Positions 1-63,669 of a stretch of DNA of 64,000 bases are shown here, in pieces (the stretch's first letter is position 1; every line of letters begins with the position of its first letter). Source of the DNA: Squalus acanthias. Taxonomy: Eukaryota. The notes beneath the pieces were generated by a model. It did no database searches. It saw only the letters and a program-made list of their open reading frames with translations, and had not been told where the DNA came from. The stretch is from positions 94,986,001 to 95,050,000 of the forward strand of contig CM059431.1 of assembly GCA_030390025.1 (NCBI GenBank). Direction: 5' to 3'. The translations under genes and the position numbers were made by a program.

Positions 1-1265
1 GTACAACCAGCCTTTCTAGTACCTCCTCTTTATCAATTTTTATCCCATCCAGTATCTCCACTACCTCCTCTTTCACTATGACTTTGGCAGCACCTTCTGC
101 CTTGGTGAAGACAGATGCAAAGTACTCATTTAGTGCCTTAGCCGTGCCCTCTGCCTCCATGCGTAAGTCTCCTTTTTAGGTCTCCTAATGGGCCCCACCC
201 CTCCTCTTATTACCCGTTTTACTATTTTTATGCCTATAGAAGACTTTTGGATTCCTTTTCATGTTAGCTGCCAATCTATTTTCATACTCTCTCTTTGCCT
301 CTCTTATTTCCTTTTTCACTTCCCCTCTGAACTTCCTATATTCAGCCTGATTCTCACTTGTATTCTCAACCTGACATCTGTCATACGCACCCTTTTTCTG
401 CTTCATCTTACTCTTTATCTCTTTCGTCAGCTAGGGAGCTCTGGCTTTTGTTGCCCAACCTCTCCCCTTCGTGGGAATGTACCTCGACTGTACCCAAACC
501 ATCTCCTCTTTAAAGGCAGCCCATTGTTCAATTACAGTTTTGCCTGCCAATCTTTGATTCCAATTTACCCGGGCCAGATCCGTTCTCAACCCACTGAAAT
601 TGTCCTTCTTCCAATTAAGTATTTTTACTCTAAATTGCTCCCTGTCCTTTTCCATAACTAATCTAAACCTTATGATACTATGATCACTGTTCCCTAAAAG
701 TTCCCCATCTGACACTTACACCACTTGCCCCATCTCATTCCCCAGAACCAGATCCAACAATGCTTCCTTCCTCGTTGGGCCGGAAACGTACTGATCAAGG
801 AAGTTCTCCTGAGCACACTTCAAAAATTCTTCCCCCTCTCTGCCCTTTACACTATTACTATCCCAGTCTATATTAGGATAGTTGAAGTCCCCCATTATCA
901 CTACTCTATAATTCTTGCACCTCCCTGTAATTTCCCTGCAAATTTGCTCCTCTATATCCTTCTCACTAGTTGGCAACCTATAGAATACACCTAGCAGTGT
1001 AATGGCACCTCTATTAGTTCTTAACTCTAACCAAATAAATTCTCTCCTTGACCCCTCCATGACATCATCTCTCTCCAGTATTGTATCATTCTCCTTAACC
1101 AATACTGCCACCCTTTCTTTCTTTCCTTCCCTATCTTTCCTGAACACCTTATATCCAGGAATATTTAATACCCAATCCTGCCCTCTTTTGAGCCAGGTCT
1201 CTGTTATTGCTACCACATCATGTGGCTATTTGTGCCTGCAGCTCACCAACCTTAGTTAACAGGCT
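1..1265 (-). mobile_element. CR1 LINE fragment, ORF2 N-terminal AP-endonuclease region (decayed)
   Basis: Minus ORFs 716..1216 (AITETWL, GVFYRLP, VIMGDFNYPNIDW, LLDLVL), 431..715 (LGNSDH) and 185..406 (NPKVFYRH) give the CR1 APE domain and linker, broken by frameshifts. Confidence 0.9.
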
Positions 1266-1411
1266 TTGTGCGTTTACACACTTGCACTGTAAACCTCTCT
1301 TAGACCTTCTTGTACTCTCAAGTACAATACCCCAACCCAGGAATCAGTCTGATGAACCTTTGTTGCTCTCTCTCTAAGGCAAGTATATCTTTCCTTAGGT
1401 AAGGAGACTAA

Positions 1412-1757
1412 AGGGGAAAAATTCAGTTGGTTGCGCCTCCCGTTAGCGCCTTAAGAGGGCGCTAATGGGGCGCAAAGCATCTAGCACCTGGGCGCGGTGA
1501 TGTTTGCGCCGCTCGCGAAATTAACTAGACATTTTGCGGCGGCGCTAAACACTACCGCCACGAACTCCTGCGCCGGCAGATCGTGACATCAGTCGAGTGC
1601 GCAACGCCCCGGTATCGCCCCAGAGCGGATATTGAGTGGCGCCCCCTGCCTTACCACCTGCCGCTAGCAACGACAGGTTGAGAGGAGCGTTTTGCAGTCA
1701 GGAAGGGACTGGGAGCGCTATTTAAAGGCGACCGCTTCCTGCCTTTTATTTGCCCCA
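1412..1757. mobile_element. Internally deleted family-A Harbinger-type MITE
   Basis: Matches about 340 bp of one end of family A (ggggaaaaattcagttggttgcgcc...), ends atttgcccca, and is flanked by TAA (1409-1411 and 1758-1760). Confidence 0.75.
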
Positions 1758-1823
1758 TAATCTGTACACAGTATTCCAGGTGTGGTCTCACTAAGGCCCT
1801 ATATAATTGCAGTATGACTTATT

Positions 1824-2710
1824 GGGAGAGAAATTCAGTATCGCCCCATTTGGGGCACAATTATCGGCTGGGCGCAAAAATTAGCGCCTGGCGCTAATTA
1901 TCGCCTCCGACTGCAAACTTGACTTTTTTCGCCCCTGGATATGATTGGAGCGCTAAATCAGGCGCTTCACACCTGTCTTAAGGCGCAAAGGCCGAGGAGC
2001 GAGGCGCTACCTCAGAGCGCTGGCGAAGCTCATCTGATGTCAGTCAGCAATGGAAGAGACACAATGGCGCCGGCCAGTTCTTAAAGGGGAGGGTTGATCT
2101 TGCTTTCCATCCACATCCTGCTCATTGCAGCCTTGAATCTTGACCTGGAGAGACCTGTACATCAAATCTGCTGGAAAGAACAATGGAGAGGCCCAGGGAA
2201 AGAGCTCAGAGTGCAGCCCCCACAGTCTCTTCTAAATCGATACAAGGAAGGGCAAATCAAAATGAACCTGCAAAGTGCTGCTCAGTACCCAAAGCTCCTT
2301 CACACAGCGTTGAATCTCTCCAGAAGTCTCTCTCTCTCCCTCTCAGAATGCGTGGTTCAAAAATGCCACCAACAATAAAAGGCAGGAAGCGGTTGCCTTT
2401 AAATAGCGCTCCCCCAGTTCCTTCCTGACTGCAAAACGCTCCCCTCAACCTGTTGTTGCTAGCGGCAGGCAGTAAGGCAGGGGGCACCACTCAATATCCG
2501 CTCCGGGGCGCTACCGGGGCGTTGCGCACTCGACTGACGTTACGATCTGCGCAGGAAATTGTGGCGGTGGTGTTTAGCGCCGCCGCAAAATGTCCAGTTA
2601 ATTTTGCGAGCGGCGCAAACATCGCCGCGCCCAGGCGCTAGTTGCTTTGCGCCCCATTAGCGCCCTCTTAAGGTGCTAACGGGAGGCGCAACCAACTGAA
2701 TTTTTCCCCC
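1824..2710. mobile_element. Family-A non-autonomous PIF/Harbinger-type element (about 890 bp)
   Basis: TIRs gggagagaaattcag / ctgaatttttccccc and a 3-bp TSD ATT. Closely similar copies at 4437, 10625 and 28383. Confidence 0.85.
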
Positions 2711-4220
2711 ATTTACTCTGACACTCCAATCCTTTTTTAATAAAGGTGAACATACCATTTGCTTTCCTAATTGCTTGCTGTACCTGCATGTTACCTTTCA
2801 GTGACTCGTGTACAAGGTCACCTAGGTCCCTCTAAATACCAGCATTTCCCAATCTCTCACCATTTAAAAAATATTCTGCTTTTCTATTTTTCCTACCAAA
2901 GTGGATTACTTCATATTTCTCTACAGAATATTCCATGTGCCATGTTCTTGTCAACTCTGTTTTCTGTCCGTTTTCCAATCCTCAAGCCATGCTAATATAT
3001 TACCCCTAATCCCATGAGCCCTAATTTTATATAATAACCTCTTGTGTGGCACCTTTTTAAATGCTTTCTGAAAATCTAAATACACTACATCCACTGGTCC
3101 CCTCTTATCTACCCTGTTAGTTACAACCTCTAAAACCTCTATTAGATTTGTCCAACATGAATTCCCTTTCATAAATCCATGTTGACTATGCCCAATCATA
3201 TTATGATTTTTTAAGTGCCCTGTTACCACGTCCCTAGTAATAGATTTTAGCATTTTCTCTACTGTTGATGTCAGGCTAACTGGTCTATAGCTCCCTGTTT
3301 TCTCTCTCCCTCCTTTCTTGAATAGCAGGATTACATTTGCTACCTTGCAATCCATGGGGATGGTTCTAGAATCTAGGGAATTCTGGAAGATCAAAACCAA
3401 TGCATCCACTGTCTCTGTAGCCATCCAGGATGTAGGCCATCAAGTCCAGGGGATTTGTTGCCTTTTAGTCCCGTTATAGAAATTATAGACCTGTTTGTCG
3501 AACATCTGTTGTGAGGAAGCTATTTGAATCTATAATTAAGGACAGAGTGACTGAGAACTTAGTGGAATTTGAGCTGATTAGAGAGAGTCAACATGGATTT
3601 GTAAAGGGTAGGTTATGTCTAACAAACCTAATTCAAGTAGTAGACAGGGGAATGTCTATGGATGTAGTTTATATGGACTTCCAGAAGTAATTCGATAAGG
3701 TTCCGCATAAGAGACTGTTTGCTAAAATTAAAGGTCATGGAATTGAAGGGAAATTATTGACCTGGTTAGGGGATTAGTCAGGTAGTAGATGATAGAGAGT
3801 AGCAATAATGGGTATGTACTTGAATTGGAAGGAATTGAGTGGTGTCCCTGTTCTGGGGCCTCAACTATTCACTATATTTATTAATGACTTAGATAACACA
3901 ATAGAGAGCCATATATCATAATTTGCACAATAAGTGGCATAGTGTGGATAGGAGCATAAAATTACAAAAAGACATTGGTAGATTAAGTGAGTGGGCAAAA
4001 ATGTGTCAGATGGGATTTCAATGCAGGTAAGTGTGAGGTCAACCATTTTGGACCAAAATAGGATAGATTTGAGTATTTCTTAAATGGTGAAAAGCTACAA
4101 ACAGTGGAGGTCCAAAGAGATTTTTGGGGGATATGTACACAGATCACTAAAATGTAGCAGTCAGGTACAAACAATAATCAAAAAGGCTAATAGAATGTTA
4201 GCCTTTATATCTAGAGGGCT

Positions 4221-6805
4221 AGCAAAAGACAAGGCTGAAGCATTCGCAACCACCTTCAGCCAGAAGTGCCGAGTGAATGATCCATCTCGACCTCTTCCTG
4301 AGGTCCCCACCACCACAGAAGCCAGTCTTCAGCCAATTCAATTCACTCCATGGGATATCACGAAAAAGCTGAGCGCACTGGATACTGCAAAGGCTATGGG
4401 CCCCGAGAACATCCTGGCTGTTGTGTTGAAGACATCGGGGGAGAAATTCGGTATCGCCCCGTTTGGGGCGCAATTATCGGCCGGGCACAAAGTTTAGCGC
4501 CTGGCGTTAATTATCGCCTCAAACTGCAAACTTGGCTTTTATCGCCCCTGGAGGCGATTGGAGCACTAAATCAGGCACTACACACCTCTCTTAAGGTGCT
4601 AACGCCGAGGAGTGAGGCGCTACCTCAGAGTGCTGGCGAAGCTCATGTGATGTCAGTCAGCAATGGAACACAGACACACTGGCGCCGGCTAGTTCTTAAA
4701 GGGGAGGATCGATCTTGCTCTCCATCCACACCCTACTCATTGCAGCCTTGAATCTTGGCCTGGAGAGACCTGTACATCAAATCTGCTGGAAAGAACAATG
4801 GAGAGGCCCAGGGAAAGAGCTCAGAGTGCAGCCCCCAAAATCTCTTCTAAATCGATGCAAGGAAGGTCAAATCAAAATGAACCTGAAAAGTGCTGCTCAG
4901 TACCCAAAACTCCTTCACACAGAGTTGAATCTCTCCAGAAGTCTCTCTCTCTCTCTCAGAGTGCGTGGTGCAAAAATATCACCGACAAAAAAAGGCAGGA
5001 AGCGGTCGCCTTTAAATAGCGCTCCCCAGTCCCTTCCTGACTGCAAAATGTTCCCCTAACCTGTTGTTGCTAGAGGCAGGTGGAAAGGCAGGGGGTGCCA
5101 CTCAATATCCGGTCCGGGGCGCTACCGGGGCGTTGCACGCTCGACTGACATCACGATCTGCGGGCGCAGGAGATCATGGCAGTAGTGTTTAGCGCCGCAA
5201 CAAATTGTCTGGTCAATTTCACGAGCGGCGCAAACATTGGCGCGCCCGGGCGCTAGTTGCTTTGCGCCCCATTAGCGCCCTCTTAAGGCTCTAATGGGAG
5301 GCACAAAGCAACCAAATTTTTCCCCCCTGTGCTCCAGAGCTAGCCGCGCCTCTAGCCAAGCTGTTCCAGTACAGCTACAACACTGGCATCTACCCGACAA
5401 TGTGTAAAATTGCCCAAGTATGTCCTGTCCACAAAAAGCAGGACAAATCCAATCTGGCCAATTATCGCCCCATCAGTCAACTCTCAGTCATCAGCAAAGT
5501 GATGGAAGGTATCATCGACAATGCAATCAAGCGGAACTTACTTACCAATAACCTGCTCACCAATTCTCAGTTTGGATTCCGCCAGGACTACTCGGCCCCA
5601 GACCTCATTATATTTTGGTCCAAAGATGGACAAAAGAGCTGAATTCCAGAGGTGAGGTGAGAGTGACTGCCCTGGACATCAATGCAGCATTTGACCGAGT
5701 GTGGCATCAAGGAGCCCTAGTAAAATTGAAGTCAATGGGAATCAAGGGGAAAACTCTCGACTGGCTGGAGTCATACCTAGCACAAAGGAAGATGGTTATG
5801 GTTGTTGGAGGCCAATCATCTCAGCTCCAGGACATCGCTGCAGGAGCTCCTCAGGGCAATGACCTAGGCCCAACCATCTTCAGCTGCCTCAACAATGACC
5901 TTCCCTCCATCATAAGATCAGAAATAGAGATGTTTGCTGATGATTGCACAGTGTTCAGTTCCATTCTCAATTCCTCAGACAATGAGGCAGTCTGTGCCCA
6001 CATACAGCAAGACCTGGACAACATTCACACTTGGGCTGATAAGTGGCAAGTAACTTTCACACCACACAAGTGCCAGGCAATGACTATCTCCAACAAGAGA
6101 GATTCTAACCAGTGCCCCTTGCCATTCAACGGCATTACCAGTGCCGAATCCTACACCTTCAACATCTTGGGGGTCACCATTGACCAGAAACTTAACTGGA
6201 CCAGGCACATAAATACTGTGGCTACAAGAGCAGGTCAGAGGCTGGATATTCTGCGGCGAGTGTCTCACCTCCTGACTCACCAAAGCCTTTTCATCACCTA
6301 CAAGGCACAAGTCAGGGGTGTGATGGAATACTCTCCACTTGCCTGGATGAGTGAAGCTCCAACAACACTCAAGATGTCAACACCATCTAGCACCTTAAAC
6401 ATTCACTCCCTCCACCACTGGCGTACCGTGGCTGCAGTGTGTACCATCTACAAGATGCACTGCAGCAACTCGCCAAGGCTTCTTCAGCAGCACCTCCCAA
6501 ACCCACGACCTCTTCCACCTAGAAGGACAAGGGCAGCAGGCGCATGGGAACACCACCAGCTCCACGTTCCCCTCCAAGTCACACACCATCCTGACTTGGA
6601 AATATATCGCTGATCCTTCATAGTTGTTGGGTCAAAATCCGGGAACTCCCTTCCTAACAGCACTATGGGAGTACCTTCACCACTTGGACTGCAGCGGTTC
6701 AAGGTGGCGGCTCACCACCACCATCTCAAGGGCAATTAGGGTTGGGCAATAAATGCTGGCCTTGCCAGTGCCGCCCACATCCCATGAATGAATTAAAAAA
6801 AATAA
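4221..6805 (+). mobile_element. LINE-X (CR1-group LINE, clade not assigned), 5'-truncated, RT plus 3' UTR
   Basis: ORFs 5400..5642 and 5615..6613 (ALDINAAFDRVWH, GAPQG, MFADD). 3' end gggcaataaatgctggccttgccag...gaatgaatt followed by an A run. Interrupted by the MITE at 4437-5326. Confidence 0.85.
4437..5326. mobile_element. Family-A Harbinger-type MITE
   Basis: TIRs gggggagaaattcgg / ccaaatttttccccc; body similar to 1824-2710. TSD not clear. Confidence 0.85.
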
Positions 6806-7587: not shown

Positions 7588-8346
7588 TAATGACTATCTC
7601 CAACAAGCGAGAGTCTAACCACCGCCCCATGGCATTCAATGGCATTACCATCGCCGAATCCCCCACCATCAACATCCTGGGGGTCACCATTGACCAGAAA
7701 CTGAACTGGACCAGCCACATAAATACTGTGGCAACAAGAGCAGGTCAGAGGCTAGGTATTCTGCGGCGAGTGTCTCACCTCCTGACTCCCCAAAGCATTT
7801 CCACCATCTACAAGGCACAAGTAAGGAGTGTGATGGAATACTCTCACTTGCCTGGATGAGTGCAGCTGCAACAACACTCAAGAAGCTCGACACCATCCAG
7901 GACAAAGCAGCCCATTTGATTGGCACCCCATCCACCACCTTAAACATTCACTACCTCCACCACCGGCATACCATGGCTGCAGTGTATGCCATCTACAAGA
8001 TGCACTGCAGCAACTTGCCAAGGCTTCTTCAGCAGCACCTCCCAAACCCGCGACCTCTTCCACCTAGAAGGACAAGGGCAGCAGGCGCATGGGAACACCA
8101 CCACCTCCAATTTCCCCTCCAAGTCACACACCATCCTGACTTAGAAGTATATTGCCGATCCTTCATCGTCGCTGGGTCAAAATCCTGGAACTCCCTTCCT
8201 AACAGCACTGTGGGAGTCCCTTCACCACATGGACTGCAGCGGTTCAAGAAGGTGGCTCACCACCACCTTCTGAAGGGCAATTAGGGATGGGCAATAAATG
8301 CTGGCCTTGCCAGTGACGCCCAGATCCCATAAGCAATTTTTTTTTA
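7588..8346 (+). mobile_element. LINE-X 3' fragment
   Basis: ORFs 7578..7859 and 7856..8284 (INILGVTIDQKLNW, KSWNSLP) and the same 3' UTR as the other copies. Confidence 0.9.
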
Positions 8347-9459: not shown

Positions 9460-11640
9460 GCTTGAATATATTTAATGACTTGGCCTCAACTACCTTCTGT
9501 GGTAGAGAATTCCACAGGTTCACCACTCTCTGGGTGAAGAAATTCTTCCTCATTTCTGTCCTAAATGGCTTACCCGTTATCCTTAGATTATGACCCCTGG
9601 TTCTGGACTCTCCGACCATCAGGAACATTCTTCCTGCTTCGAGTCTGTCAGAATTTTATATGTTTCGATGAGATCCCCTCTCATTCTTCTATACTCCAGC
9701 GAGTATAAGCCCAATCGACCCAATCTCTCCTCATATGTCATTCCTGCCATCCCAGGTATCAGCCTTGTGAATCTTCGCTGAGCTCCTTCCATGGCAAGAA
9801 CATCCTTCCTCAGATAAGGCAACCAAAACTGCACACAGTACTCAAGATGTGGTCTCACCAAGGCCCTGTACAACTGCAGCAGGACATCCCTGTTCCTATA
9901 CTCAAACCCTTTCGCTATGAAGGCCAACATACCATTTGTCTTCTTTACCGCCTGCTGCACCTGCATGCTTACTTTCAGCGACTGGTGCACAAGGACACCC
10001 AGGTCTCGTTGCACTTCCCCTTCTCCCAATCTATTGCCATTCAGATAATAGTCTGCCTTTCTGTTTTTGACACCAAAGTGGATAACCTCGCATTTATCCA
10101 CATTATATTGCATCTGCCACGCTTCTGCCCACTCACTCAACCTATCCAAATCATCCTGGAGTTTCTCGGTATCCTCCTCGCAGCACACACTCCCACCCAG
10201 CTTTGTGTCATCTGCAAACTTGGAGATATTACATTTAGTTCCCTTATCTAGATCATTAATGTATATTGTGAATAGCTGGGGTCCAAGGACCGATCCCTGC
10301 GGTACCCCACTAGTCACTGCTTGCCACTCGGAAGAAGACCCATTAATTCCTACTCTCTGCTTATTTCTCAGTTCTACCCATACAGATTCTGCATCATCAG
10401 AGCTAATATCCTTCCTTTCAATTGTGTTAATTCCCTCTTTAACCAGCAATGCTACCCCACCTCCCTTTCTTTTTTGCCTATCTTTCCTAAATATTGAATA
10501 ACCCTGGATGTTGAGTTCCTGGAGCCATGTTTCTGTAATCCCAATCAAATCGTATTCATTTACCTCTATTTGCGCAGCTAATTCATCCACCTTGTTCCGA
10601 ATGCTCCTTGTATTAAGTCACAAAGGGGGAAAAATTCAGTTGGTTGCGCCTCCCGTTAGCGCCTTAAGATGGCGCTAATGGGGCGCAAAGCATCTGGCGC
10701 CCAGGCGCGGCGAAGTTTGCGCCGCTCGCGAAATTAACTAGACATTTTGCGGCGGCGCTAAACACTACTGCCACGATCTCCTGCGCCGGCAGATCGTGAC
10801 GTCACTCGAGTGTGCAACGCCCCGGTATCGCCCCGGAGCGGATATTGAGTGGCGCCCCCTGCCTTACTGCCTGACGCTAGCAACGACAGGTTGAGGGGAG
10901 CGTTCTGCAGTCATGTAGGGAAAGGGGGAGCGCTATTTAAAGGTGACCGCTTCCTGCCTTTTATTGTTGGTGCCATTTTTGAACTACACATTCTGAGAGA
11001 GAGAGGGAGAGACTTCTGGAGAGATTCAACGTTGTGTGAAGGAGTTTTGGGTACTGAGCAGCACTTTGCAGGTTCATTTTGATTTGCCATTCCTTGTATC
11101 GATTTAGCAGAGACTGTGGGGGCATCACTCTGAGCTCATTGCCTGGTACTCTCCATTGTTCTTTCCAGCACATTTGATGTGCAGGTCTCTCCAGGCCGAG
11201 ATTCAAGGCTGCAATGAGCAGGATGTGGATGGAAAGCAAGATTAACCATCCCCTTTAAGAACTGGCCCGTGCCATTGTGTGTGTGTTCCATTGCTGACTG
11301 ACATCAGATGAGCTTCGCCAGCGCTCTGAGGTAGCGCCTCGCTCCTCGGCCTTTGCGCCTTAAGACAGGTGTGAAGCGCTTGATTTAGCGCTGCAATCAC
11401 CTCCAGGGGCGATAAAAGTCAAGTTTGCAGTCGGTGGCGATAATTAGCGCCAGGCGCTAATCTTTGCGCCCGGCCGATAATTGCGCCTCAAATGGGGCGA
11501 TACTGAATTTCTCCCCCAAAGCCTTCAGGCTTGTTTTTTTAACGCTCTCAGACCTATGTGAATTATTATTTACTGTGACCATGTTTGATTTAAACCGTTG
11601 AGTTCTTTGCCTTCTACCTTTGTTTTTCTCCTTCAACTGC
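9460..11640 (-). mobile_element. CR1 LINE with a large internal deletion, interrupted by a family-A MITE
   Basis: ORF 9619..10590 fuses the APE N-terminus (ITETWL...VWVELRN) directly to the RT C-terminal half ([16 protein letters not shown]). Near-identical to the CR1 at 24061-25910. Confidence 0.9.
10625..11517. mobile_element. Family-A Harbinger-type MITE (reverse orientation)
   Basis: TIRs gggggaaaaattcag / ctgaatttctccccc and TSD AAA (10622-10624 and 11518-11520). Confidence 0.9.
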
Positions 11641-12919
11641 ACAGTCACCTTATATAGGTTAAAAAAAAGTAGAGTATTGAAAGAAAATCAAACATTTGTG
11701 CAGTTTCATCCCCAGTTTAATAACGACAATGTCCATGATGCAAAACTGGCATAAATTGACAGCCTCATACAGACACGTCAGAAGGAAGGTTCACTTGGAA
11801 AGTGGAAAAAACCATGCTACGTAATATGGGATGCTCTTGTGAGGTTTGGTTTACGGCCTGTTGTTGGCAGAGTAAAAAAACTTCTTTATGCATCTGACCT
11901 TGCTACAGCTGGTCTGGAAGGGCTTGATGCGGATACAGTGGGGTAAATTTTTGGAGACTCCGCTACCAGTGCAGAGTCTCGGTCAATGAGAAATGGATGA
12001 AAATCTAGGAGCACCGCAAATTCAGCATGCTAATGTCTACAGGCAGTTTGCTGCTCCTAGCTCTCGTTGAGTGAGCATGACTCGTTTACAGTACCGAGTC
12101 TCCAAACATCCATCCCTGTGTGTAGAAAAGCGGAAAAAATCTTTCATTTCCCAACACTGACACTCAGTCAAATGCTGCCTTGATGTCAAGGGCAATCACT
12201 CTCACCTCACCTCTGGAATTCAGCTTTTTTTTCCATGTTTGAACCAAGGCTGTAATGAGGTCTGGAGCCAAGTGGTCCTGGCGGAACCCAAACTGAGCAT
12301 TGGTGGGCAGGTTATTGGTGAGTAAGTGCCACTTGATAGCACTGCCGACAACACCTTCCATCACTTTGCTGATGATTGAGAGTAGACTTATTAGACGATA
12401 ATTGGCCGGGTTGGATTTGACCTGCTTTTTGTGGACAGGACATACCTGGGCAGTTTTCCACATTGTCGGGTAGATGCCAGTGTTGTAGCTGTACTGGAAC
12501 AGCTTGGCTAGAGGCACAGCTAGTTCTGGAGCACAAGTCTTCAGCATGACAGCTGGGATGTTGTTGGGGCCCATAACATTTGCTATATCCAGTGCGCTCA
12601 GTGCTATCACATGGGGTGAATTGAATTGGCTGAAGACTGGCTTCTGTGATGGTGGGAACCTCAGGAGGAGGCCGAGATGGATCATGCACTCAGCACTTCT
12701 GGCTGAAACTTCAGTCTTGTCTTTTGCTAGCCCTCTAGATATAAAGGCTAACATTCTATTAGCCTTTTTGATTATTGTTTGTACCTGATGCTTCAGCCTT
12801 GTCTTTTGCACTTACATGCTGGGCTCCGCCATCATTGGGGATGGGGATATTCATGAAGCCTCCTCCTCCCGTTAGTTGTTTAACTGTCCACTACCATTCA
12901 CAACTGGATGTGGCAGGAC

Positions 12920-13492
12920 CCTGGTGAGACTACACCTGGAGTACTGTGTACAGTTTTGGTCTCCTTACCTAAGGAAGGATATACTTGCCATAGAGGGAGT
13001 GCAACAAAGGTTCACCAGACTGGTTCCTGGGATGGGGGGATTGTACAATGAGGACAGATTGAGTAGACAAGGCCTATATTCTCTAGAGTTTAGAAGAATG
13101 AGAGGTGATCTCATTGAAACATGCAAAATTCTTACAGGGCTTGACAGGGTAGATGCAGGGAGGATGTTTCCCCTGGCTAGGGAGCCTAGAATCAGGGTTC
13201 ACAGTCTCAGAATAAGGGGTCTGCCATTTAGGACTGAGATGAGGAGAAATTTCTTCACTCAGAGGGTGGTGAATCTTTGGAATTGTCTACCCCAGAGGGC
13301 TATGGAAGCTCAGTCGTTGAGTATATTCAAGACAGAGATCGATAGATTTTTAATATTAAGGAAATCAAGGGATATGGGGATAGTTCAGGAAAGTGGAAAT
13401 TAGGTAGAAGATCAGCCATGATCTTATTGAATGGCGGAGCAGGCTCGAAGGGCCAAATGGCATCTTCCTGCTCCTATTTCTTATGTTCTTAT
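12920..13492 (+). mobile_element. CR1 3' end inserted in LINE-X
   Basis: LEYCVQFWSPY...RRMRGDLIE, FFTQRVVNLWN, and a 3' tail ending ttcttatgttcttatg. Confidence 0.9.
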
Positions 13493-14851
13493 GACTGCAG
13501 AGCTTTGATCTAATCTATTGGTTGTGGGATCGCTTCGCTCTGTCTATGGCATGCTGTTTCCACTGTTTAGCATGTATGTAGTCCTGTGCTGCACCTTCCC
13601 CAGGTTGGCACCTCATTTTTAAGTATGCCTGGTGCTGCTCCTGGCATGCTCTTCTGCACTCCTCATTGAACCAGGGTTGGTCCCCTGGCTTGATGGTAAT
13701 GGTAAAGTGAGGGAAATGCCAAGCCATGAAGTTACAGATTGTGGTGGAATACAATTCTGCTGCTTTTGATGGCCCACAGCGCCTCATGGATGGCCAGTTT
13801 TGAGCTGTTAGATCTGTTCCGAATCTATGCCATTTAGCACGGTGGTAGTGCCACACAACACGATGGAGGGTGTCCTCAGTGTGAAGACGGGAATTCGTCT
13901 CCACAATGCCTGTGCGGTGGTCTTTGCTACCAATACTGTCATGGACAGATGCATCTGCGACAGGTAGATTGGTGAGGACAAGGTCAAGTAGGTTTTTCCT
14001 TCGTGCTGGTTCTCTCACCACCTGCCACAGACCCAGACTGGCAGCTATGTCCTTCAGGATTTGGCCAGCTCGGTCAGTAGTGGTGCTACCGAGCCATTCT
14101 TGGTGATGGACTTTGAAGTCCCCCACCAAGACTACATTTAGTGCTTCTTCCAAGTGGTATTCAACATGGAGGAGTACTGATTCATCAGCTGAGGGAGGGC
14201 GGTAGGTGGTAATCAGCAGGAGGGTTCCTTGCGTATGCTTTACCTGAAGCCATGAGACTACATTGGGTCCGAAGTCAATGTTGAGGACTCCCAGGGCCAC
14301 TCCCTCCCGACTGTGTCGCCACCTCTGGTGGGTCTGTCCTGCCGGTGGGACAGGACATACCCAGGGATAGTGATGGAGGAGTCTGGGACATTGGCTGAAA
14401 GGTATGATTCTGTGAGTATGACTATGTCAGGCTGTTGCTTGACTAGTCTGTGGGACAGTTCTCCCAATTTTGGCACAAGCCCCCAGATGTTAGTGAGGAG
14501 GACTTTGCAGAGTCAACTGGGCTGGGTGTGCCATTGTCGTGTCCAAAGCCGTTGCCTCGGTCGATGCCGGGTGGTCCGTCCGGTTTTATTCCTACTATTG
14601 TTTTTCGTTGCCATTTGGTACAACTAAGTGACTTCAGAGGGCAGTTAAGAGTCAACCACATTGCTGTGGGCGTGGAGTCACATAGAGGCCAGACCAGGTG
14701 AGGACGGCAGATTTCCTTCCCTAAAGGACATTAGTGATCCAGATGGGTTTTTACGACAATCCAGTAGTTTCATGGTCACCATTACTGATACTAGCTTTTT
14801 ATTCCAGATTTATTTTATTAACTGAATTTAAATTCCCCAGCTGCCGTGGTG

Positions 14852-14927
14852 GGATTTGAACTCACGTCTCTGGATCATTAGTCCAAGCCTCTAGGATTAC
14901 TAGCCCAGTGACATAACCACTATGCTA
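14852..14927 (-). promoter_or_regulatory. Type-2 RNA polymerase III internal promoter (A and B boxes) of the LINE-X head
   Basis: Minus strand A-box TAGCATAGTGG (14927-14917) and B-box GAGTTCAAATCC (14863-14852). Confidence 0.7.
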
Positions 14928-15015
14928 CCCTACCCCAAAAGTATTGCAGTAACTTAGTTTACAGAGTTGGTTAGTTGCTTTGAGTTTGAACCTAACGCTT
15001 GCTATTTCATTTTAG

Positions 15016-15312
15016 GGCTTTACAATGAACCATCAATAACTGTGGCACCTAAGGATGAAGTCCAGTATGGAACTGAGGTGAATCTAACCTGCTCTTCCAG
15101 TAACGGTTATCCAAAGCCAGAAGTTGAGTGGTACAATAAAACTGGAGATGTTCCTTTTGAAAAGGATGAGACAAACACCAGATGCGATCCTGTCAACCAC
15201 TTGTGCAACGTTACCAGTGTCCTGAGGGTCAGAGTTACTACAGAATGTGTTATAATCTGCTCCATAATAAACTCCAGCCTTCAAGACAATAAAACGTCAG
15301 CGTATCATCTCC
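15016..15312 (+). CDS. Exon encoding a CD80-like (C2-set) IgC domain of a B7-family protein (CD276/ICOSL-like)
   Basis: Acceptor ttcattttag and donor c|gtacgt; 297 bp, phase 1-1. Encodes LYNEPSI...NLTCSSSNGYPKPEVEW...LCNVTSVLRV...IICSIIN, typical B7 IgC motifs. Confidence 0.85.
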
Positions 15313-23200: not shown

Positions 23201-23244
23201 TACTAATTGTTACTGATTCAACAACCAATGAAGATGACATTTAT

Positions 23245-25990
23245 TTTTTATTTGTTCATGGGATCTGGGCATCGCTGGTAAGGCCAGTATTTATTGCCCA
23301 TCCCTAGTTGCCTTTGAGAAGGTGGTGGTGAGCCGCGTGGTGAAGGTACTCCCACAGTGCTGTTAGGGAGGGAGTTCCAGGATTTTGACCCAGCAACGAT
23401 GAAGAAAAGGGGATATACTTCCAAGTCAGGATGGTGTGTGACTTGGAGGGGAATTTGTAGATGGTGGTGTTCCCTTGCGCCTGCTGCCCTTGTCCTTCTA
23501 GTTGGTAGAGGTCGTGGATTTGGGAGGTGCTGCCGAAGAAGCCTTGGCAAGTTGCTGCAGTGCATCTTGTAGATGGTACACACTGCATCCACAGTACACT
23601 GGTGGTGGAGGGCGTGAATGTTTAAGGTGGTGGATGGGGTGCCAATCAAGTGGGCTGCTTTATCCTAGATGGTGTCGAGCTTCTTGAGTGTTGTTGGAGC
23701 TGCACTCATCCAGGCAAGTGGAGAGTATTCCATCACACTCCTTACTTGTGCCTTGTAGATGGTGGAAAGGCTTTGGGGAGTCAGGAGGTGAGACACTCAC
23801 TGCAGAATACTTAGCCTCTGACCTGCTCTTGTTGCCACTGTATTTATGTGGCTGGTCCACTTAAGTTTCTGGTCAATGCTGACCCCCAGGATGTTGATGG
23901 TGGGGGATTCGGCGATGGTAATGCCGTTGAATGTCAAGGGGCGGTGGTTAGACTCTCGCTTGTTGGAGATAGACATTACCTGGCACTTGTGTGGCGCGAA
24001 TGTTACCTGCCACTTATCAGCACAAGCCTGAATGTCGTCCAGGTCTTGTTGCATGGACTGTAAGAGTTTTTATAGATATGTGAAGAGAAAAAGATTAGTG
24101 AAATCAAGTATAGGTCCCTTGCAGTCAGAAGCGGGGGAAGTTATAATGGGGAACAAAGAAATGGCAGACCAATTAAATGCATATTTTGGTTCTGTCTTCA
24201 CAAAGGAGGACACAAATAACCTCCCAGAGATGTTGGAGAACATAGGGTCTGATGAAAGGGAGGAACTGAAAGACATCAGTATTTGCAGTGAAATGGTGTT
24301 AGGGAAATTGACGGGATTGAAGGCCGATAAATCCCCAGGGCCTGATAATCTACATCCTAGGGTACTTAAGGAAGTGGCCCTAGAAATAGTAGATGTATTG
24401 CTGATCATCTTCCAACATTCGATGGAATCTGGAACTGTACCCATGGATTGGAGGGTAGCTAATGTTACCCCACTATTCAAAAAAGGTTGTCGAGAGAAAG
24501 CGGGGAATTACAGACCGGTAAGCCTGACATCGGTAGTGGGGAAAATGCTAGAGTCCATTATAAAGGATGTAATAGCTGAGCACTTGAAAAACAGTAACAG
24601 GATCGGACAAAGTCAACATGGATTTACAAAAGGTAAATCGTGCTTGACTAATATACTGGAATTTTTTGAGGATGTAACTGGGAAAATAGATAAGGGAGAA
24701 CCAGTAGATGTGGTATATTTGGACTTTCAAAAGGCTTTCGATAAGGTCCCACATAAGAGATTAGCGTGTAAAGTTAAGGCACATGGGATTGGGGGCAAGG
24801 TATTGACTTGGATAGAGAACTGGTTGGCGGACAGAAAGCAAAGAGTAGAAATTAATGGGTCTTTTTCTGAGTGGCAAGCAGTGACTAGTGGGGTACCGCA
24901 GGGATCGGTCCTTGGACCCCAGCTATTCATAATATACATTAATGATCTAGATAAGGGAACTAAATGTAATATCTCCAAGTTTGCAGATGACACATAGCTG
25001 GGTGGGAGTGTGTGCTGCGAGGAGGATACCGAGAAACTCCAGGATGATTTGGACAGGTTGGGTGAGTGGGCAGAAGCGTGGCAGATGCAATATAGCGTGG
25101 ATAAATGCGAGGTTATCCACTTTGGTGTCAAAAACAGAAAGGCAGACTATTATCTGAATGGCAATAGATTGGGAGAAGGGGAAGTGCAACGAGACCTGGG
25201 TGTCCTTGTGCACCAGTCGCTGAAGGTAAGCATGCAGGTGCAGCAGGAGGTGAAGAAGGCAAATGGTATGTTGGCCTTCATAGCGAAAGGGTTTGAGTAT
25301 AGGAACAGGGATGTCCTGCTGCAGTTGTACAGGGCCTTGGTGAGACCACACTTTGAGTATTGTGTGCAGTTTTGGTCGCCTTATCTGAGGAAGGATGTTC
25401 TTGCCATGGAAGGAGTTCAGTGAAGATTCACAAGGCTGATACCTGGGATGGCAGGAATGACATATGAGGAGAGATTGGGTCGATTGGGCTTATACTCGCT
25501 GGAGTACAGAAGAATGAGAGGGGATCCCATCGAAACATATAAAATTCTGACAGGTCTGGACAAACTAGATGCAGGAAGAATGTTCCCGATGGTCGGAGAG
25601 TCCAGAACCAGGGGTCATAATCTAAGGATAAGGGGTAAGCCATTTAGGACAGAAATGAGGAAGAATTTCTGCACCCAGAGAGTGGTGAACCTGTGGAATT
25701 CTCTACCACAGAAGGTAGTTGAGGCCAAGTCATTAAATATATTCAAGAATGAGTTAGGTATATTTCTTAAAGCTAAAGGTATCAAGGGATATGGGGAGAA
25801 GGCAGGTACAGGGTACTGAGTTTGGATGATCAGCCATGATCTCATCGAATGGCGGAGCAGGCTCGAGGGGCCGAAAGGCCTACTCCTGCTCCTATCTTCT
25901 ATGTTTCTATATTATCTGAGGAGTTGCGAATGGCACTGAACACTGTGCAGTCATTAGGGAACATCCCCATTTCTGACCTTATGTTGGAGG
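23245..25990 (-). mobile_element. LINE-X 3' fragment (23245-24060 and 25911-25990) split by a CR1 insertion
   Basis: ORFs 23248..23649 and 23797..24054. LINE-X resumes at attatctgaggagttgcgaatggcactg. Confidence 0.85.
24061..25910 (+). mobile_element. Young CR1 LINE, 5'-truncated, full RT domain plus 3' UTR
   Basis: ORFs 24032..24997, 25010..25423 and 25448..25819 are in one frame separated only by stops. Tail ttctatgtttctat. Confidence 0.95.
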
Positions 25991-26019
25991 GATGGTCATT
26001 GCAATTATTGTATCCATTG

Positions 26020-29590: not shown

Positions 29591-29602
29591 TGGTGACCCC
29601 GA
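29591..29602 (+). promoter_or_regulatory. Primer-binding site complementary to the tRNA-Trp 3' end
   Basis: TGGTGACCCCGA, 1 nt after the 5' LTR. Confidence 0.85.
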
Positions 29603-29629
29603 TGCTCAGAACGTATTCCGAGCACTGCA

Positions 29630-32600: not shown

Positions 32601-33422
32601 ACCGCCGACATCGCCAGAGCCTTCATCAGCACCTGGGTCGCACGGTTCGGCGTCCCCTCCAACATGACGTCGGACAGAGGTCCGCAATTTACCTCTGAAC
32701 TCTGGACAGCCGTTGCACGCAATCTCGGGGTGACCATTCACCACACCACAGCATACCACCCCCAAGCCAATGGACTGTGTGAGCGGTTCCACAGATCCTT
32801 GAAGGCATCTCTTCGAGCCAGCCTCCAAGACGGCGCCTGGACCGACCGACTTCCGTGGGTCCTCCTCGGCCTGCGCACCGTGGTTAAAGAAGATCTCCGC
32901 GCATCGGCAGCAGAGCTCGTGTACGGTCAGCCGCTGCGCGTACCCGGCGAGTTCCTGCCCACCTCCACGACACCCTGGTCAGCCGACCAGCAACGCCACG
33001 ACTTCGCCTCACCGGCGCTGCAGTTCACCCCGGTGCCCATTGCTCGACACGGCGAATCCACCTCACACGTCCCACTAAGCCTGCACCAGGCACGGTTTGT
33101 TTTCGTCCGGCACGACGCCCACCGCGGACCCCTTCAACCCCCGTACGACGGGCCCAACAAGGTGCTACAGGCTGGGGACAAATTTTTCACCCTGCAAGTG
33201 GGCGACAGGACCGAAAAAGTGTCGGTTGACCGACTCAAGCCAGCACACTCGGAGCCCGGTGAGCAGGTCCCTGTAGCTCGTCCACCTCCACGCGACCGAC
33301 CTGCCCTCAAGCCGGTTCACCCGGCTGCTGCACGCCCGGCCGTTCCATGTCCACCGGCGTCCTACAAGAGCCGCTCCGGCCGGCCCATCAGACCGCCGCA
33401 CTGTCTCGTCCACACCTCCTAA
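29630..33422 (+). pseudogene. Gypsy gag-pol polyprotein, disabled
   Basis: KLPEFW gag, YYYHAWFGARAQRCTPPC (degenerate CHCC), LCDTGA protease, RT with YPDD, TDAS RNase H, integrase HVD/SDRGPQF/ERFH and PYDGP. Frameshift near 32321. Confidence 0.9.
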
Positions 33423-46809: not shown

Positions 46810-49500
46810 TTTGCAGGAAACTTGGTTGAGAGGTGATGATACCTTACCCTTAAATGAAGCCTCCCACCTGACTATACATTCCACCACCTTCCCCGTTCAG
46901 ACCGCCATGGTGGCGGTGTGGCTCTCATCACCAAATCACAACTTGGTCTGTCCCCCTAGTCCTCCGGCACTTTCTCCTCCTTTGAGCATCTCGCCTTATT
47001 CCACCTCTCTCACCTCTCATTTAAAATTCTCGGGGGCAAAAATTGGCTCGCGGTCCCTTTGGGGCGCTAACTTCGCCGGGGTGCTAAAGTTAGCGCCTAT
47101 GCCCGAAATTGAATGGTAGCGCCCCAAGCAGGAGGCGGGGCACTACAGGAAGCATTCCTCCTCCCTCTTGGAGTGCTTAAACTCAATATCACGGCGCTAC
47201 GTGCAGCAGCGCCACGCGCGCCGGCACGTAGCGCCGCGGTACTGCAGGTCTCCCTCCCCTAATTAAAGGGGAGGCGCCAAGCGCAGCGCACACCGGGGCC
47301 CTGCTGGACCACCGGCGAGCGGGGTGCCGGCAAACGAGCTTGGCACTCAAGGAGTGCCGGGCTGATGGATCGCGGCCGGCACCCCGCAGGAGGAGGCCAG
47401 AGGGGGGCAGATGCTGGCAGGCGGCCCAAAAATAATTGCCGCCCGGCACCTGCCCTTTAATTTACGCTGCCCCAGCCGCAGACACGGCACCCTGATCCTG
47501 TCGGACATAGCGTCCGGCAGTAGGTCAGGGGGCATGAGCTAAATTTGTGGCTAGGACGCGAGCAGAGCGCTGCGCACGGCAATAACGTCATCGCCGGAGG
47601 CGCAGCACCGTGGGGCACTACCGCCTACTGCCACCGGTAACCAGGAGGCGTTAGCGGCTCTGCGCCCGGGTGCTAGTTGCTTTGTGCCTCGCTAACGGGA
47701 GGCGCAAAGCAACCGAATTTTTCCCCCTCGTTCTCTAACGCCCACCCAAGTACCATAAAATTTTTATTTTCAAGATATCTTCACGGCTTTCCTCCCTCAG
47801 CCTCTGCACCAAGCGACTTCTCATCCTTAGTGATTTCAACCTCCATCTCAATTCCTCATGCTCTCTCTCCTCTGAGTTCACTGCCCTCCTATCCTCCCTT
47901 AATCTCTCCCACCATGTAAACTCCTCAACCCATATTCACAGCCACCCCCTCGACCTTGCCATCTCTTGTGGCCTCGCTATTCCCATCGTGTCAATCGCAG
48001 ATAAGGCCATTTCTGACAAGGCCATCTCTGACCACTTCCTCGTATCGCTCTCCATCACATTCCCCTTCCACGCCCCCGCCCCCACCCCCCACCCCCAAAC
48101 CTACTTCCTTCTGTATCCACCCCTGGAAAAAACTCTCTCCCAACTCTCTTACAACTGCACTTATGAAATCCCAACTGTCCAACCTTTGGCCCTCCATTCA
48201 GCACAACATTTCTGCAGCTACCGATCTGCTCAACCACACCCACACCACCACCTTTGATGCCCTAGTCCCTATTAAAACAATTACTCTCTCTCACCCTGGC
48301 CGTTCCCCCTGGTACAGCCATCATCTTCACTCCCTTAAGTCCAAGGGACGCAGACTTGAACGGGTATGGTGGACAATTGGTTCAGCCATTCACCGCCAGA
48401 TCTGGCTGGACCACATAAAACATTATCAGGTCCTGCTCTCGTCTGCCAAAACTGCTCACTATTCCAGAATAATTCTGGAATGCAAAGATAAACCTAGGCT
48501 TCTATTCTCTACTGCTAGCCGTCTTCTTAAACCCCTCTCCCCGTCTCATCCACCCTCACCTCCAACAAGTGTGAGGAGCTCATGGACTTCTTTGTCTCTA
48601 AGATTGAGACCATCTGTTCAGCTGCCTCTGCCACTTCCCTTCCTTCCCCTAGCCCACCAGGCCAAACTTCCTTGAAGGTTCCACCCTGCCCTAGCCCTGA
48701 ACTTACATCTTTCTCCAGTTTCTCTCCAATCTCCCCTCATGACTTCCCCGCGCTCATCTTGTCCACTTCCTGCTCCCTCGACCCTATTCCCACCAAACTG
48801 CTGACCACCCAACTTCCTTTTCTGGCTCCCGTGTTAGCTGATAATGTTAATGGTTCTCTCTCCTTAGGTACTGTCCCCCTCTCCCTCAAATCTGCCATCA
48901 TCACCCCTCTCCTCAAAAAACCAACCCTTGAGCCTTTCGTCCTAGCAAACTACTGCCTCATCTCCAACCTCCCTTCCTCTCCAAAGTCCTTGAACATGTT
49001 GTCGCCTCCCAAATCCGCGCCCATCTTTCCCGGAACTCCATGCTTGAATCCCTCCAATCAGGTTTCCGCCCCTGCCACAGTACAGAAACGGCTCTCATCA
49101 AAGTCACAAATGACATCCTTTGTGACTGTGACAAAGGTAAACTATCCCTCCTCTTCCTTCTTGACTTGTCTGCAGCCTTTGACACGGTTGATCACTCCAT
49201 CCTCCTCCGACGCCTCTCCACCGTTGTCCAGCTGGGTGGGACTGCACTCGCCTGGTTCCATTCTTATCTATCTAATCGTAGCCAGAGAATCACCTGCAAC
49301 AGCTTCTCTTCCCACTCCCACATCATTACCTCTGGTGTCCCCCAAGGATCTATCCTTGGCCCCCTCCTATTTCTCATCTACATGCTGCCCTTTGGCAACA
49401 TTATCTGAAAACACAGCGTCAGTTTCCACATGTACGCTGACGACGTCCAGCTCTACCTCACCACCACCTCTCTCAACCCCTCCACGGTCTCTAAATTGTC
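46810..49500 (+). mobile_element. L2 LINE ORF2 (APE to RT), decayed, interrupted by a family-B MITE
   Basis: QETWL, ISDHFLV, LDPIPT, QSGFRPCHSTETAL, LLDLSAAFDTVDH, GVPQGSILGP and YADD. Confidence 0.9.
47032..47726. mobile_element. Family-B MITE (reverse orientation)
   Basis: TIRs gggggcaaaaatt / aatttttcccc and TSD CTC. Confidence 0.85.
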
Positions 49501-51430
49501 AGATGCATCTGTCCATGACAGAATTGGTAGCAGTGATGAAGTCCCGTCTTCACAGTGAGGAAACCCTCCATTGTGTTGTGTGGCACTACCACAGTGCTAA
49601 TTGGGAAAGATTCAGAACAGATCTAGCAGCTCAAAAATGGGCATCCATGAGGCACTGTGGGCGATCAGTAGCAGCAGAATTGTATAACATCACAATCTTT
49701 AACCTCATGGCCTGGCATATCCCTCACTCTACCATTACCATCAAGCCAGGGGATAAACCCTAGTTCAATAAAGAGTGTAGAAGAGCATGTCAGGAGCAGC
49801 ACCAGGCATACCTAAAAATGAGGTGCCAACCTGGGGAAGCTGCAACAGAGGATTACATGCATGCTAAAAAACGGAAGCAGCATGCGATAGACGGAGCCAA
49901 GCAATCCCATAATCAACGGATCAGATCAAGGCCCCGACAACATCCCGGCTATCTTGCTGAAGACTTGTGCTCCAGAACTAGCCGCGCCTCTAGCCAAGCT
50001 GTTCCAGTACAGCTACAACACTGGCAACTATCCGACAATGTGGAAAACTGCCCAGGTATGTCTGTCCACAAAAAGCAGGACAAATCCAATCTGGCCAATT
50101 ACTGCCCCATCAGTCTACTCTCAATCATCAGCAATGTGATTGAAGGTGCGTCGACTGTGCTATCAAGCAGCACTTACTCACCAATAACCTGCTCACTGAT
50201 GCCCAGTTTGGGTTCCGCCAGGACCACTCGGCTCCAGACCTCATTACAGCCTTGGTCCAAACATGGACAAAAGAGCTGAATTCCAGAGGTGAGGTGAGGT
50301 GAGAGTGACTGCCCTTGACATCAAGGCAGCATTTGACCGAGTGTGGCATCAAGGATTCAATGGGAATCAGGGGGAAACTCTCCACTGTCTGGAGTCATAT
50401 CTAGCACAAAGGAAGATGGTTGTGGTGGTTGGAGGTCAATCATCACAGCCCAGGACATCACTGCAGGAGTGCCTCAGTGCAGTGTCCTAGGCACAACCAT
50501 CTTCAGCTGCTTCATAAATGACCTTCCCTCCATCATAAGTTCAGAAGTGGGGATGTCCGCTGATGACTGCACAGTGTTCAGTGCCATTCGCAACTCCTCA
50601 GATAATGAAGCAGTCCATGCCCGCATGCAGCAAGACCTGGACGACATTCAGGCTTAGGCTGACAAGTGGCAGGTAACATTCGCGCCACACAAATGCCAAC
50701 CAATGACTATCTCCAACAAGCGAATGTCTAACCACCGCCCCTTGACATTCAATGGCATTACCATCGCCGAATCCCCCACCATCAATATCCTGGGGGTCAC
50801 CATTGACCAGAAACTTAACTGGACCAGTCACATAAATACTGTGGCAACAAGAGCAGGTCAGAGGCTAGGTATTCTGCAGTGAATGTCTCACCTCCTGACT
50901 CCCCAAAGTCTTTCCACCATCTACAAGGCACAAGTCAGGAGTGTGATGGAATACTCTCCACTTGCCTAGATGAGTGCAGCTCCAACAGCACTCAAGGAGC
51001 TCGACACCATCCAAGACAAAGCAGCCCGCTTGATTGGCACCCCAACCACTTCCTTGAACATTCACTCCCTCCACCATCGGCGTACTGTGGCTGCAGTGTG
51101 TACCATCTACAAGATGCACTCGCCATGGCTTCTTCGGCAGCACCTCCCAAACCCGCGGCCTCTTCCACCTAGAAGGACAAGGGCAGCAGGCGCATGGGAA
51201 CACCACCACCTCCAAGTCACACACCATCCTGACTTGAAAGTATATCGCCATTCCTTCATCGTCGCTGGGTCAAAATCCTGGAACTCCCTCCCTAACAGCA
51301 CTGTGGGAGGACCTTCACCACATGGACCGCAGCGGTTCAAGAAGGCTGCTCACCACCACCTTATCAAGGGCAACTAAGGATGGGCAATAAATGCTGGCCT
51401 TGCCAGCGATGCCCTGATCCAATTTAACAA
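49501..51430 (+). mobile_element. LINE-X, end of APE to 3' UTR, with internal deletions
   Basis: ORFs 49818..50279, 50299..50490, 50343..50657 and 50970..51377, plus the family 3' UTR. Confidence 0.9.
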
Positions 51431-63665: not shown

Positions 63666-63669
63666 CGAT

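Follow-up and report, generated by a model that had tools for sequence, protein, structure and literature searches.

The stretch of Squalus acanthias DNA analyzed here (contig CM059431.1, positions 94,986,001 to 95,050,000), which at its full length of 64,000 nt is called the window below, holds on its minus strand a copy of a long interspersed nuclear element (LINE) that reads in the sense direction from 14935 down to ~12160 and whose family we name LINE-X. LINE-X is an autonomous retrotransposon without long terminal repeats (non-LTR), ~3.3 kb long, with one endonuclease-reverse transcriptase (RT) frame. The window copy starts with a tRNA-derived head (14836..14935, minus strand; element positions 1-100), which is the 5' terminus of the family and was recognized by an Rfam tRNA match of 20.7 bits and by the pile-up of copy 5' ends. 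Within it, also on the minus strand, lie an A-box-like motif, TAGCATAGTGG (14917..14927), which fits the consensus TRGCNNAGTGG, and a B-box-like motif, AGTTCAAATCC (14852..14862), which agrees with the B-box consensus at 9 of 11 positions. The head is followed by what we call the body (14607..14835, minus strand; element 101-329), a sequence common to short interspersed nuclear element (SINE)-type elements, whose copies match LINE positions 1-300 to 1-329; in the window copy it carries a small deletion near its end. Then comes a LINE-only leader (14513..14606, minus strand), recognized by its frame reading and by the leader motif AAACCGGAYGGACCACCCGGCATCGAC, which is open in the endonuclease frame and has no in-frame ATG.

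The rest of the copy is coding sequence, interrupted once. The endonuclease domain and linker occupy 13493..14512 on the minus strand (Exo_endo_phos_2, 6.1e-11), collinear with other copies, with the frame broken in the window copy. A nested fragment at 12914..13492, on the plus strand, represents the 3' end of the open reading frame (ORF) of a CR1-like LINE; it matches 25330-25905 and 9461-9868, is foreign to LINE-X, and is missing from other LINE-X copies. Beyond it, at 12160..12913 on the minus strand, is the start of the RT domain (RVT_1, 8.4e-8), mapped onto a full copy. The window copy stops at element position ~2173 and so lacks a 3' part of its own. The initial annotation of this DNA had described a tRNA-like head with A and B boxes close upstream of the endonuclease frame, leaving no room for an ORF1, and this description stands: the endonuclease frame ('..LLTNIWGLVPKLGEL..') opens at 14512, ~423 nt from the element start, and a classical ORF1 would not fit between it and the head and is absent. 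The head is a degenerate one, as its 20.7 bits indicate, and a small ATG frame, here termed ORFb (14443..14661, minus strand; 72 codons in the window copy and 75-76 elsewhere), overlaps the start of the endonuclease frame. An ORF1-less structure is not unusual among CR1/L2-type LINEs, UnaL2 and ZfL2-2 being examples.

Across twenty 7-kb genomic stretches the LINE-X unit measures ~3.3 kb (3300 bp in the reference copy, L038) with 90-94% pairwise identity, and 11 collinear copies of 3218-3315 bp have a common 5' end, GGGAAYGGTAGC..., and a common 3' end, ...CACCACCACCTTCTCAAGGGCAAYTAGGGATGGGCAATAAATGCTGG...GAAT(T)AAAAAAA. A search of the genome (3.7 Gb) that used the first 457 nt as query yielded 8840 candidates; each of the 40 matches that were scored spanned the full query, and 29 of 29 non-self loci continued into endonuclease and RT. 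This query included LINE-specific sequence, so that sample is biased. Two unbiased samples of 5' ends were therefore considered, one of 20 copies taken by the start of the endonuclease and one of 40 copies on a single chromosome taken by the leader motif at 357-383. Ten of the 20 reach element position 1-2, and the other ten stop at 34, 49, 158, 175, 205, 297, 329, 343, 351, and 439, with unrelated DNA upstream. The 40 copies of the leader-motif sample divide into 18 that extend to position 1-4, 3 that end at 14-29, and 19 with ends spread over 70-352. Taken together, 28 of 60 copies are complete to the start of the head and 29 begin beyond position 30; neither sample contained an alternative 5' sequence. 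Because sampling that is blind to the head still ends at the head start, we conclude that the head is LINE-X's own 5' terminus and not a chance SINE neighbor, which settles whether full-length copies begin with it, a check proposed in the initial annotation. The leader motif itself occurs 7086 times in the genome at ≤2 mismatches, with no occurrence in a reversed control, and by extrapolation the head-bearing full-length copies number a few thousand.

The most trivial alternative, that a SINE and a 5'-truncated LINE happen to lie side by side in the window, could appeal to the in-window search, which found no second head or endonuclease part elsewhere. It is refuted by 1360 exact body-to-leader junctions genome-wide and by the 28 unbiased copies that reach the head start, and its probability is negligible. 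We also considered a headless variant starting at ~322-330, as three of the 20 copies (L053, L059, and L063) are truncated no more than ~10 nt from the SINE/LINE boundary; it was rejected, none of the 40 copies in the second sample ending there.

The regular 5' end of LINE-X is, in short, a tRNA-derived head plus a ~230-nt SINE body, and its last ~100 nt are a SINE tail. The template RNA for reverse transcription begins with the first nucleotide of the head, and the A box lies 8 nt downstream of this start. The shared tail closes with a short A run, and many copies are 5'-truncated, including 4 of the 5 in the window. As for target-site duplications, none of 15 copies scored higher than the 95th percentile obtained with mismatched flank pairs; in many LINEs of the CR1/L2 type such duplications are short or absent.

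The initial annotation overlooked key context, namely that LINE-X shares both of its ends with a SINE-type derivative formed by internal deletion. Short elements also occur in which the 5'-most ~300-329 nt of LINE-X are joined directly to its 3'-most ~77-109 nt, and patterns of equal stringency count 1169 exact body-to-tail junctions genome-wide against the 1360 body-to-leader ones. The 20 SINE-type copies examined are about 360-400 bp long and show four junction types, in which LINE positions 1-306/307 are joined to 3204-3300, 1-300 to 3192/3194-3300, 1-322 to 3223-3300, and 1-327/329 to 3224/3228-3300. Eleven of them begin at LINE position 1-3, and none of these eleven contains a run of four or more T (T4). 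As LINE coding sequence, at most ~50 nt of it, survives in some forms, we read them as recurrent internal deletions: the SINE-type elements are derivatives of head-bearing LINE-X that have arisen at least four separate times. Contigs of four public sequencing runs (X1, X5, X8, and X18; kind unrecorded) contain the family as well, with the same body-to-tail joints; none of the runs listed as carrying the family is recorded as RNA. SINE types A and B diverged later, and at position 4 they have T, where LINE copies have A. Separately, old related SINE copies, ~70-77% identical, were seen in two of the genomic stretches (L035, oriented 4990-5330, and L040, oriented 5100-5320), with the same head-body-tail layout and a different body-to-tail junction. 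Since these diverged copies share the layout, the SINE architecture predates the present LINE-X subfamilies.

The ~300-329 nt of 5' sequence common to LINE and SINE-type elements would also permit a different scheme, in which the LINE RNA starts in the body or leader and the head is regained in each cycle, the RT jumping to a SINE RNA made by RNA polymerase III (Pol III) during target-primed reverse transcription. Template switching is treated as an accepted origin of SINE chimeras in the relevant passages of two studies (Luchetti et al. 2017, PMC5499810; Kojima 2018, PMC5786205). Such a scheme is difficult to square with the 5' ends, however: no second pile-up appears in the body or leader, 19 of 40 truncations are scattered, and the cluster at ~322-330 goes from 3 of 20 to 0 of 40. 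The difference at position 4 likewise indicates that LINE heads are not simply copied from the RNAs of type A and B SINEs. We consider this scheme improbable.

At the family level, the A box reads TAGC[G/A]TAGTGG at element 9-19 and the B box AGTTCAAATCC at 73-83, so that an A box is followed by a B box near the 5' end, within the 30-60 nt spacing expected of a tRNA-type promoter. Compared with the Rfam tRNA model, the window head (14928..14848) scores 20.7 bits (E 0.57), below the gathering score of 29, with the match limited to positions 7-64, and ARAGORN called no tRNA in it. Three other LINE-X loci gave no match at E<1 to Rfam tRNA or ribozyme families, and folding of the head yielded no cloverleaf (z-score -0.3) and no acceptor stem. 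From the subthreshold Rfam score and the missing ARAGORN call, we judge the head to be a degenerate tRNA derivative of a sort that SINEs carry.

The state of the head bears on the possibility that the 5' end is made by processing, with LINE-X cotranscribed with host genes and cut by an RNase P-like activity just upstream of the head, in parallel with ribozyme-bearing LINEs. The sharp common 5' end of the family would suit such a cut, and 5' ends defined by ribozymes are described for six LINE clades, RTE and R2 among them, in the part of the review concerned (Kojima 2018, PMC5786205). A head with neither acceptor stem nor cloverleaf, which matches the tRNA model only over 7-64, argues against it, as does the absence of any ribozyme-family match at E<1 in the three loci; the avoidance of T runs described below is also not accounted for. 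We regard processing as very improbable.

An alignment of 53 5' regions, those of 52 copies and of L038 as the reference, shows which parts of the presumptive promoter have been held constant. Subfamily-diagnostic positions are 6, 13, 21, 26, 32, 158, 316, 331, 345, and 357. The only subfamily difference in the A box, at position 13, sits at a degenerate position of the consensus, and no diagnostic change falls in 71-83, around the B box; the conserved positions of both boxes are intact in both subfamilies. The body has 2 diagnostic positions in 229 nt, compared with 5 in the first 32 nt of the head and 3 in 55 nt of the LINE-only leader, and it looks like the most constrained noncoding part. 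Capped templates often leave an extra G at the 5' end of the copy. Of 48 heads, 28 open with precisely GGG and 6 with four G, 2 of these 6 through an A-to-G change; an additional 5' G is thus not in excess.

Runs of four or more T terminate vertebrate Pol III, and LINEs normally use Pol II promoters in their 5' untranslated regions (UTRs). The sense-strand T4 counts that the initial annotation gave for the window were all correct on recount. No T4 occurs in 14936..13493 or 12913..12164, the two parts of the headed copy; in 49500..51423 (plus strand), a LINE-X copy with an internal deletion that joins element 1015-1470 to 1763-3283; or in 7589..8338 (plus strand), a 3' fragment covering element 2541-3292. 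Two, at 5613 and 6288, lie in the 5'-truncated copy at 5328..6802 (plus strand; element 1798-3300, with a further piece at 4222-4433), and one lies near 23408 in the 3' fragment at 24059..23241 (minus strand; element 2459-3300), which resumes at 25912-26001 beyond a CR1-like insertion. The CR1-like sequence at 24061-25910 has five. The view that LINE-X T4 runs are copy-specific extends to the whole family. Seven of the 11 full copies have no sense-strand T4, and the others have 2-3 at copy-specific sites, as against 14-19 runs of four A (A4). Over 96,294 aligned bases from 81 copies, 27 T4 runs occur at 21 sites, each common to at most 3 of the 81 copies; 15 A4 sites are common to at least half of the copies, whereas no T4 site over the 3.3 kb is common to 20% or more. 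As no T4 site is shared among the copies, the LINE-X master sequence had no sense-strand T4, a conclusion reached without consensus building.

How unusual this is depends on the measure. Dinucleotide shuffles expect 1.4-2.9 T4 per 3.3-kb copy, with a probability of 0.1-0.24 of finding none. The comparison with a codon-shuffled ORF that the initial annotation had called for gave a divided answer, in that the T4 count itself is unexceptional (1.6 expected; P 0.16) and the shorter runs fall below expectation. Relative to base composition, TT occurs at 0.69-0.74 and TTT at 0.26-0.38 of the expected frequency (7-10 TTT against 26-27 expected); AAA, CCC, and GGG are near expectation, and the neighboring CR1-like LINE has a TTT ratio of 1.10. 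In 2000 synonymous shuffles of 974 codons, with protein sequence and codon usage fixed, LINE-X had 86 TT against 101.2±4.1 expected and 6 TTT against 13.5±3.1 (P 0.003). The effect is strongest for T on both sides of a codon junction (T|T), of which there are 9 against 24.2±4.1 expected, a number that 0 of 2000 shuffles reached. AA, AAA, CCC, and GGG were not shifted. The T|T ratio is low in each third of the ORF (0.29, 0.45, and 0.35), and the older window copy shows a weaker depletion (0.64, P 0.047).

Five control frames from the same DNA, four CR1-like (27-35% RT identity to LINE-X) and one LTR-element pol frame, gave T|T ratios of 0.97, 0.94, 0.73, 0.79, and 1.21; another candidate control, the L048 frame, proved to be partly LINE-X and was left out. 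Strong depletion among the 16 junction dinucleotides of LINE-X is confined to C|G, T|A, and T|T, each with z below -3.5, and that of C|G and T|A is a general vertebrate bias. Codons ending in T make up 6.7% of those before T, 20.4% before C, and 13.9% before A. Only 19 of the 974 codons specify phenylalanine, and TTT accounts for 3 of them. There is, then, a significant T-specific avoidance of TT and TTT at synonymous sites in LINE-X that is absent from the five controls. Selection for Pol III read-through would be expected to produce such avoidance, and to this extent the finding agrees with the earlier proposal of selection for full-length Pol III transcription; the absence of T4, on which that proposal was built, lies by itself within what composition allows.

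The coding region spans ~330-3240 of the 3300 positions, with the endonuclease (Exo_endo_phos_2, 6.1e-11) and RT (RVT_1, 1.7e-38) in one reading frame, and this frame is broken in all 11 full copies. It opens directly after a conserved TAA at 327-329 and has no ATG before the endonuclease domain (element 327-440, window ~14609-14496); eight out-of-frame ATGs precede it. The small ATG frame of 75-76 codons starts at ~277, inside the body common to SINE-type elements, and extends out of phase into the beginning of the endonuclease frame. Its translation ('MWLTLNCPLKW...CPTD*') ends at one common stop in 5 (L012, L013, L018, L021, and L030) of the 13 copies whose start was located. This frame of 72-76 codons could be a vestigial or a real small first ORF, or a frameshift route into the long frame. 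Read-through from a mini-ORF ATG at ~303 was considered as well and rejected, as most copies have a second stop there ('MA*').

Taken together, we propose that LINE-X may be transcribed by Pol III from end to end. The start would be set, as in SINEs, by the internal A/B-box promoter of the head, and indeed the start of LINE-X coincides to the base with that of the SINE-type elements (18 of 40 LINE and 11 of 20 SINE-type copies). Selection would bar T4 from the sense strand and hold down TT and TTT, synonymous sites included, and this purging of T runs would let Pol III traverse the 3.3 kb and stop at a terminator in the flanking DNA. The weakest step is the last, in which the uncapped RNA would have to be translated, at a low level, through an unconventional start. 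On sequence evidence we consider end-to-end Pol III transcription plausible and put its probability at roughly 0.45. A bolder and more doubtful version would make LINE-X an 'autonomous SINE', that is, the first protein-coding retrotransposon to be transcribed end to end by Pol III from a tRNA-derived promoter, purged of terminators over 3.3 kb, with a leader from which a conserved SINE body, perhaps the Deu domain, might have come.

Several points weigh against Pol III. The elements credited with a Pol III promoter are short, SINEs at 100-700 bp and Helenus at up to 1263 bp, for which weak processivity is blamed in the section that treats them (Kojima 2024, PMC10886601), and at 3.3 kb LINE-X is several times longer than these. 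In the passage on bipartite LINEs, coding for protein is held to exclude SINE-type transcription, and these LINEs are taken to use Pol II (Kojima 2018, PMC5786205). With no cap, with eight ATGs upstream, and with none in frame, the RNA would make a poor messenger. The head is degenerate by the tRNA model score, by the lack of a tRNA match in the three other loci, and by its fold, and the conservation of its boxes could be mere hitchhiking with a recently captured SINE head. The absence of T4, taken alone, goes only weakly beyond chance (P about 0.1-0.2). The T|T test was made on decayed copies tiled from three loci, its controls come from a single LTR element and a small number of interrelated CR1-like families, and two of the five controls are themselves mildly depleted (0.73 and 0.79). 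Finally, avoidance of U runs could serve other ends, such as evasion of RNA-binding proteins or of cryptic splice sites.

A rival account is that of a Pol II LINE that captured a SINE head and body, through template switching by the RT in the shared region, and that starts at or near head position 1 from an internal Pol II promoter. The head would then be a passenger, a chromatin opener, or a binder of TFIIIC, and T-run avoidance would have some other cause. Both the 3.3-kb length and the protein-coding frame suit Pol II, as do an AATAAA 54 nt and an ATTAAA 10 nt before the 3' end, the degenerate head, and a T4 absence that is not significant alone; moreover, known autonomous LINEs are all held to use Pol II in the part of the literature cited above (Kojima 2018, PMC5786205). 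This account nevertheless needs a Pol II start that equals the SINE-type start to the base (11 of 20 and 18 of 40 copies), leaves the T-specific synonymous avoidance without explanation, and must cope with three AATAAA and one ATTAAA inside the first 354 nt, and the extra 5' G is not in excess. It is a serious possibility, if one that we would not expect to prevail.

Whichever polymerase is used, the relationship of LINE-X to known families can be outlined. Its RT and C-terminal domain, including the region after the RT, are 27-35% identical to four CR1-like frames, and from sequence it may belong to the broad CR1/L2 group. Some of its traits, such as its size, the 75-codon overlapping frame, and the bipartite derivatives, are RTE-like, and yet its RT aligns with CR1-like LINEs. 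Homologue names and atlas clusters offered no clade-informative name. UnaL2, with its partner UnaSINE1, and ZfL2-2 are single-ORF LINEs of the L2 clade, ~3.5-4 kb long, whose 3' tail is common with a tRNA-derived SINE and is recognized by the RT. LINE-X resembles them in its single ORF and its partner-SINE tail; their 5' ends are not known to be SINE heads.

SacSINE1 of sharks, skates, and chimaeras has a tRNA head and a Deu domain, is at most ~460 bp long, and has a tail that matches the LINE L2-2_CM (Luchetti et al. 2017, PMC5499810). By description only, as given in the pertinent part of that paper, its size and layout fit the SINE-type elements found here; the LINE-SINE homology reported there is at the tail only, whereas LINE-X also has the SINE head and body. 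Closer in make-up are the bipartite derivatives formed from the 5' and 3' ends of autonomous LINEs by internal deletion, which the relevant section of Kojima (2018, PMC5786205) describes for RTE, Ingi, Vingi, and R2 alone, together with SINE bodies equal to LINE 5' UTR sequence for RTE and Vingi. The SINE-type elements of LINE-X have the same internal-deletion make-up. In the cases presented in that section, however, the tRNA head is on the SINE alone and the LINE is taken as a Pol II element, whereas LINE-X itself carries the head. The same source remarks that RTE-1_DAn and relatives contain tRNA-like sequence that gives spurious matches to tRNA-derived SINEs (PMC5786205). RTE-1_DAn is thus a LINE with a tRNA-like stretch, as is LINE-X, although the remark states no position, function, or SINE relation for it, and it belongs to another clade and another host (an insect, judged by its name).

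Elements that use a Pol III promoter derived from a small RNA as their own start do exist, namely Cassandra, Helenus, and Ajax ('TRIMp3'; Kojima 2024, PMC10886601). According to the part of that paper devoted to them, they are noncoding LTR elements of 311-1263 bp, unlike LINE-X, which is a 3.3-kb protein-coding non-LTR element. In the literature searched we found no description of an autonomous LINE with a tRNA-derived SINE head as its regular 5' end, although a repeat library may list one, and a search of the literature for a Pol III-transcribed or tRNA-headed LINE yielded only the remark on RTE-1_DAn.

The surroundings of LINE-X copies also deserve mention. In the window, the sequence adjoining the head at 15020-15200 (plus strand) is exon-like and by eye encodes an immunoglobulin-like domain ('..NGYPKPEVEWYNKTG..'), and we conclude from this that the window copy is probably in or beside a host gene. 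Long pol frames of an LTR retrotransposon, with RVT_1, RNase H, integrase, and DUF7041 domains, run through 29597-33419 (plus strand) in a stretch with a GC content of 0.57-0.64. Another LINE of the CR1/L2 group, at 61858-63943 (minus strand), has endonuclease and RT frames with 32% RT identity to LINE-X; its sense strand is T-rich, 577 codons containing 11 T4 runs. Elsewhere in the genome, a ~3.1-kb CR1-like LINE is inserted antisense in a LINE-X copy (L046:1179-4292); its unbroken endonuclease-RT frame of 988 codons nearly fills the insertion and served as a composition control. The flank of the L038 copy (L038:2407-2539) contains a long near-perfect hairpin, with weak matches to microRNA-precursor models far below threshold, which is probably an inverted-repeat transposon.

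In the usual division of labor, LINEs are protein-coding and depend on Pol II, and SINEs are noncoding Pol III transcripts of a few hundred bases. LINE-X presents thousands of copies of an autonomous LINE that has a SINE promoter head as its own start, that repeatedly spawns SINE-type elements by internal deletion, and whose avoidance of T runs makes obvious sense only for Pol III. The structure of LINE-X is firm and its polymerase is not. Should the polymerase be Pol II, LINE-X would be a clear case of a LINE that captured the 5' end of its parasite, and the T-run signal would need another cause. Should it be Pol III, the length range of natural Pol III transcripts would grow several-fold, an uncapped messenger would have to be translated, and there would be a direct route to the birth of SINEs and of their conserved bodies. 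If LINE-X is an 'autonomous SINE' in the sense given above, SINEs would have arisen by deletion from a Pol III LINE and would not be parasites put together from a tRNA and a LINE tail.

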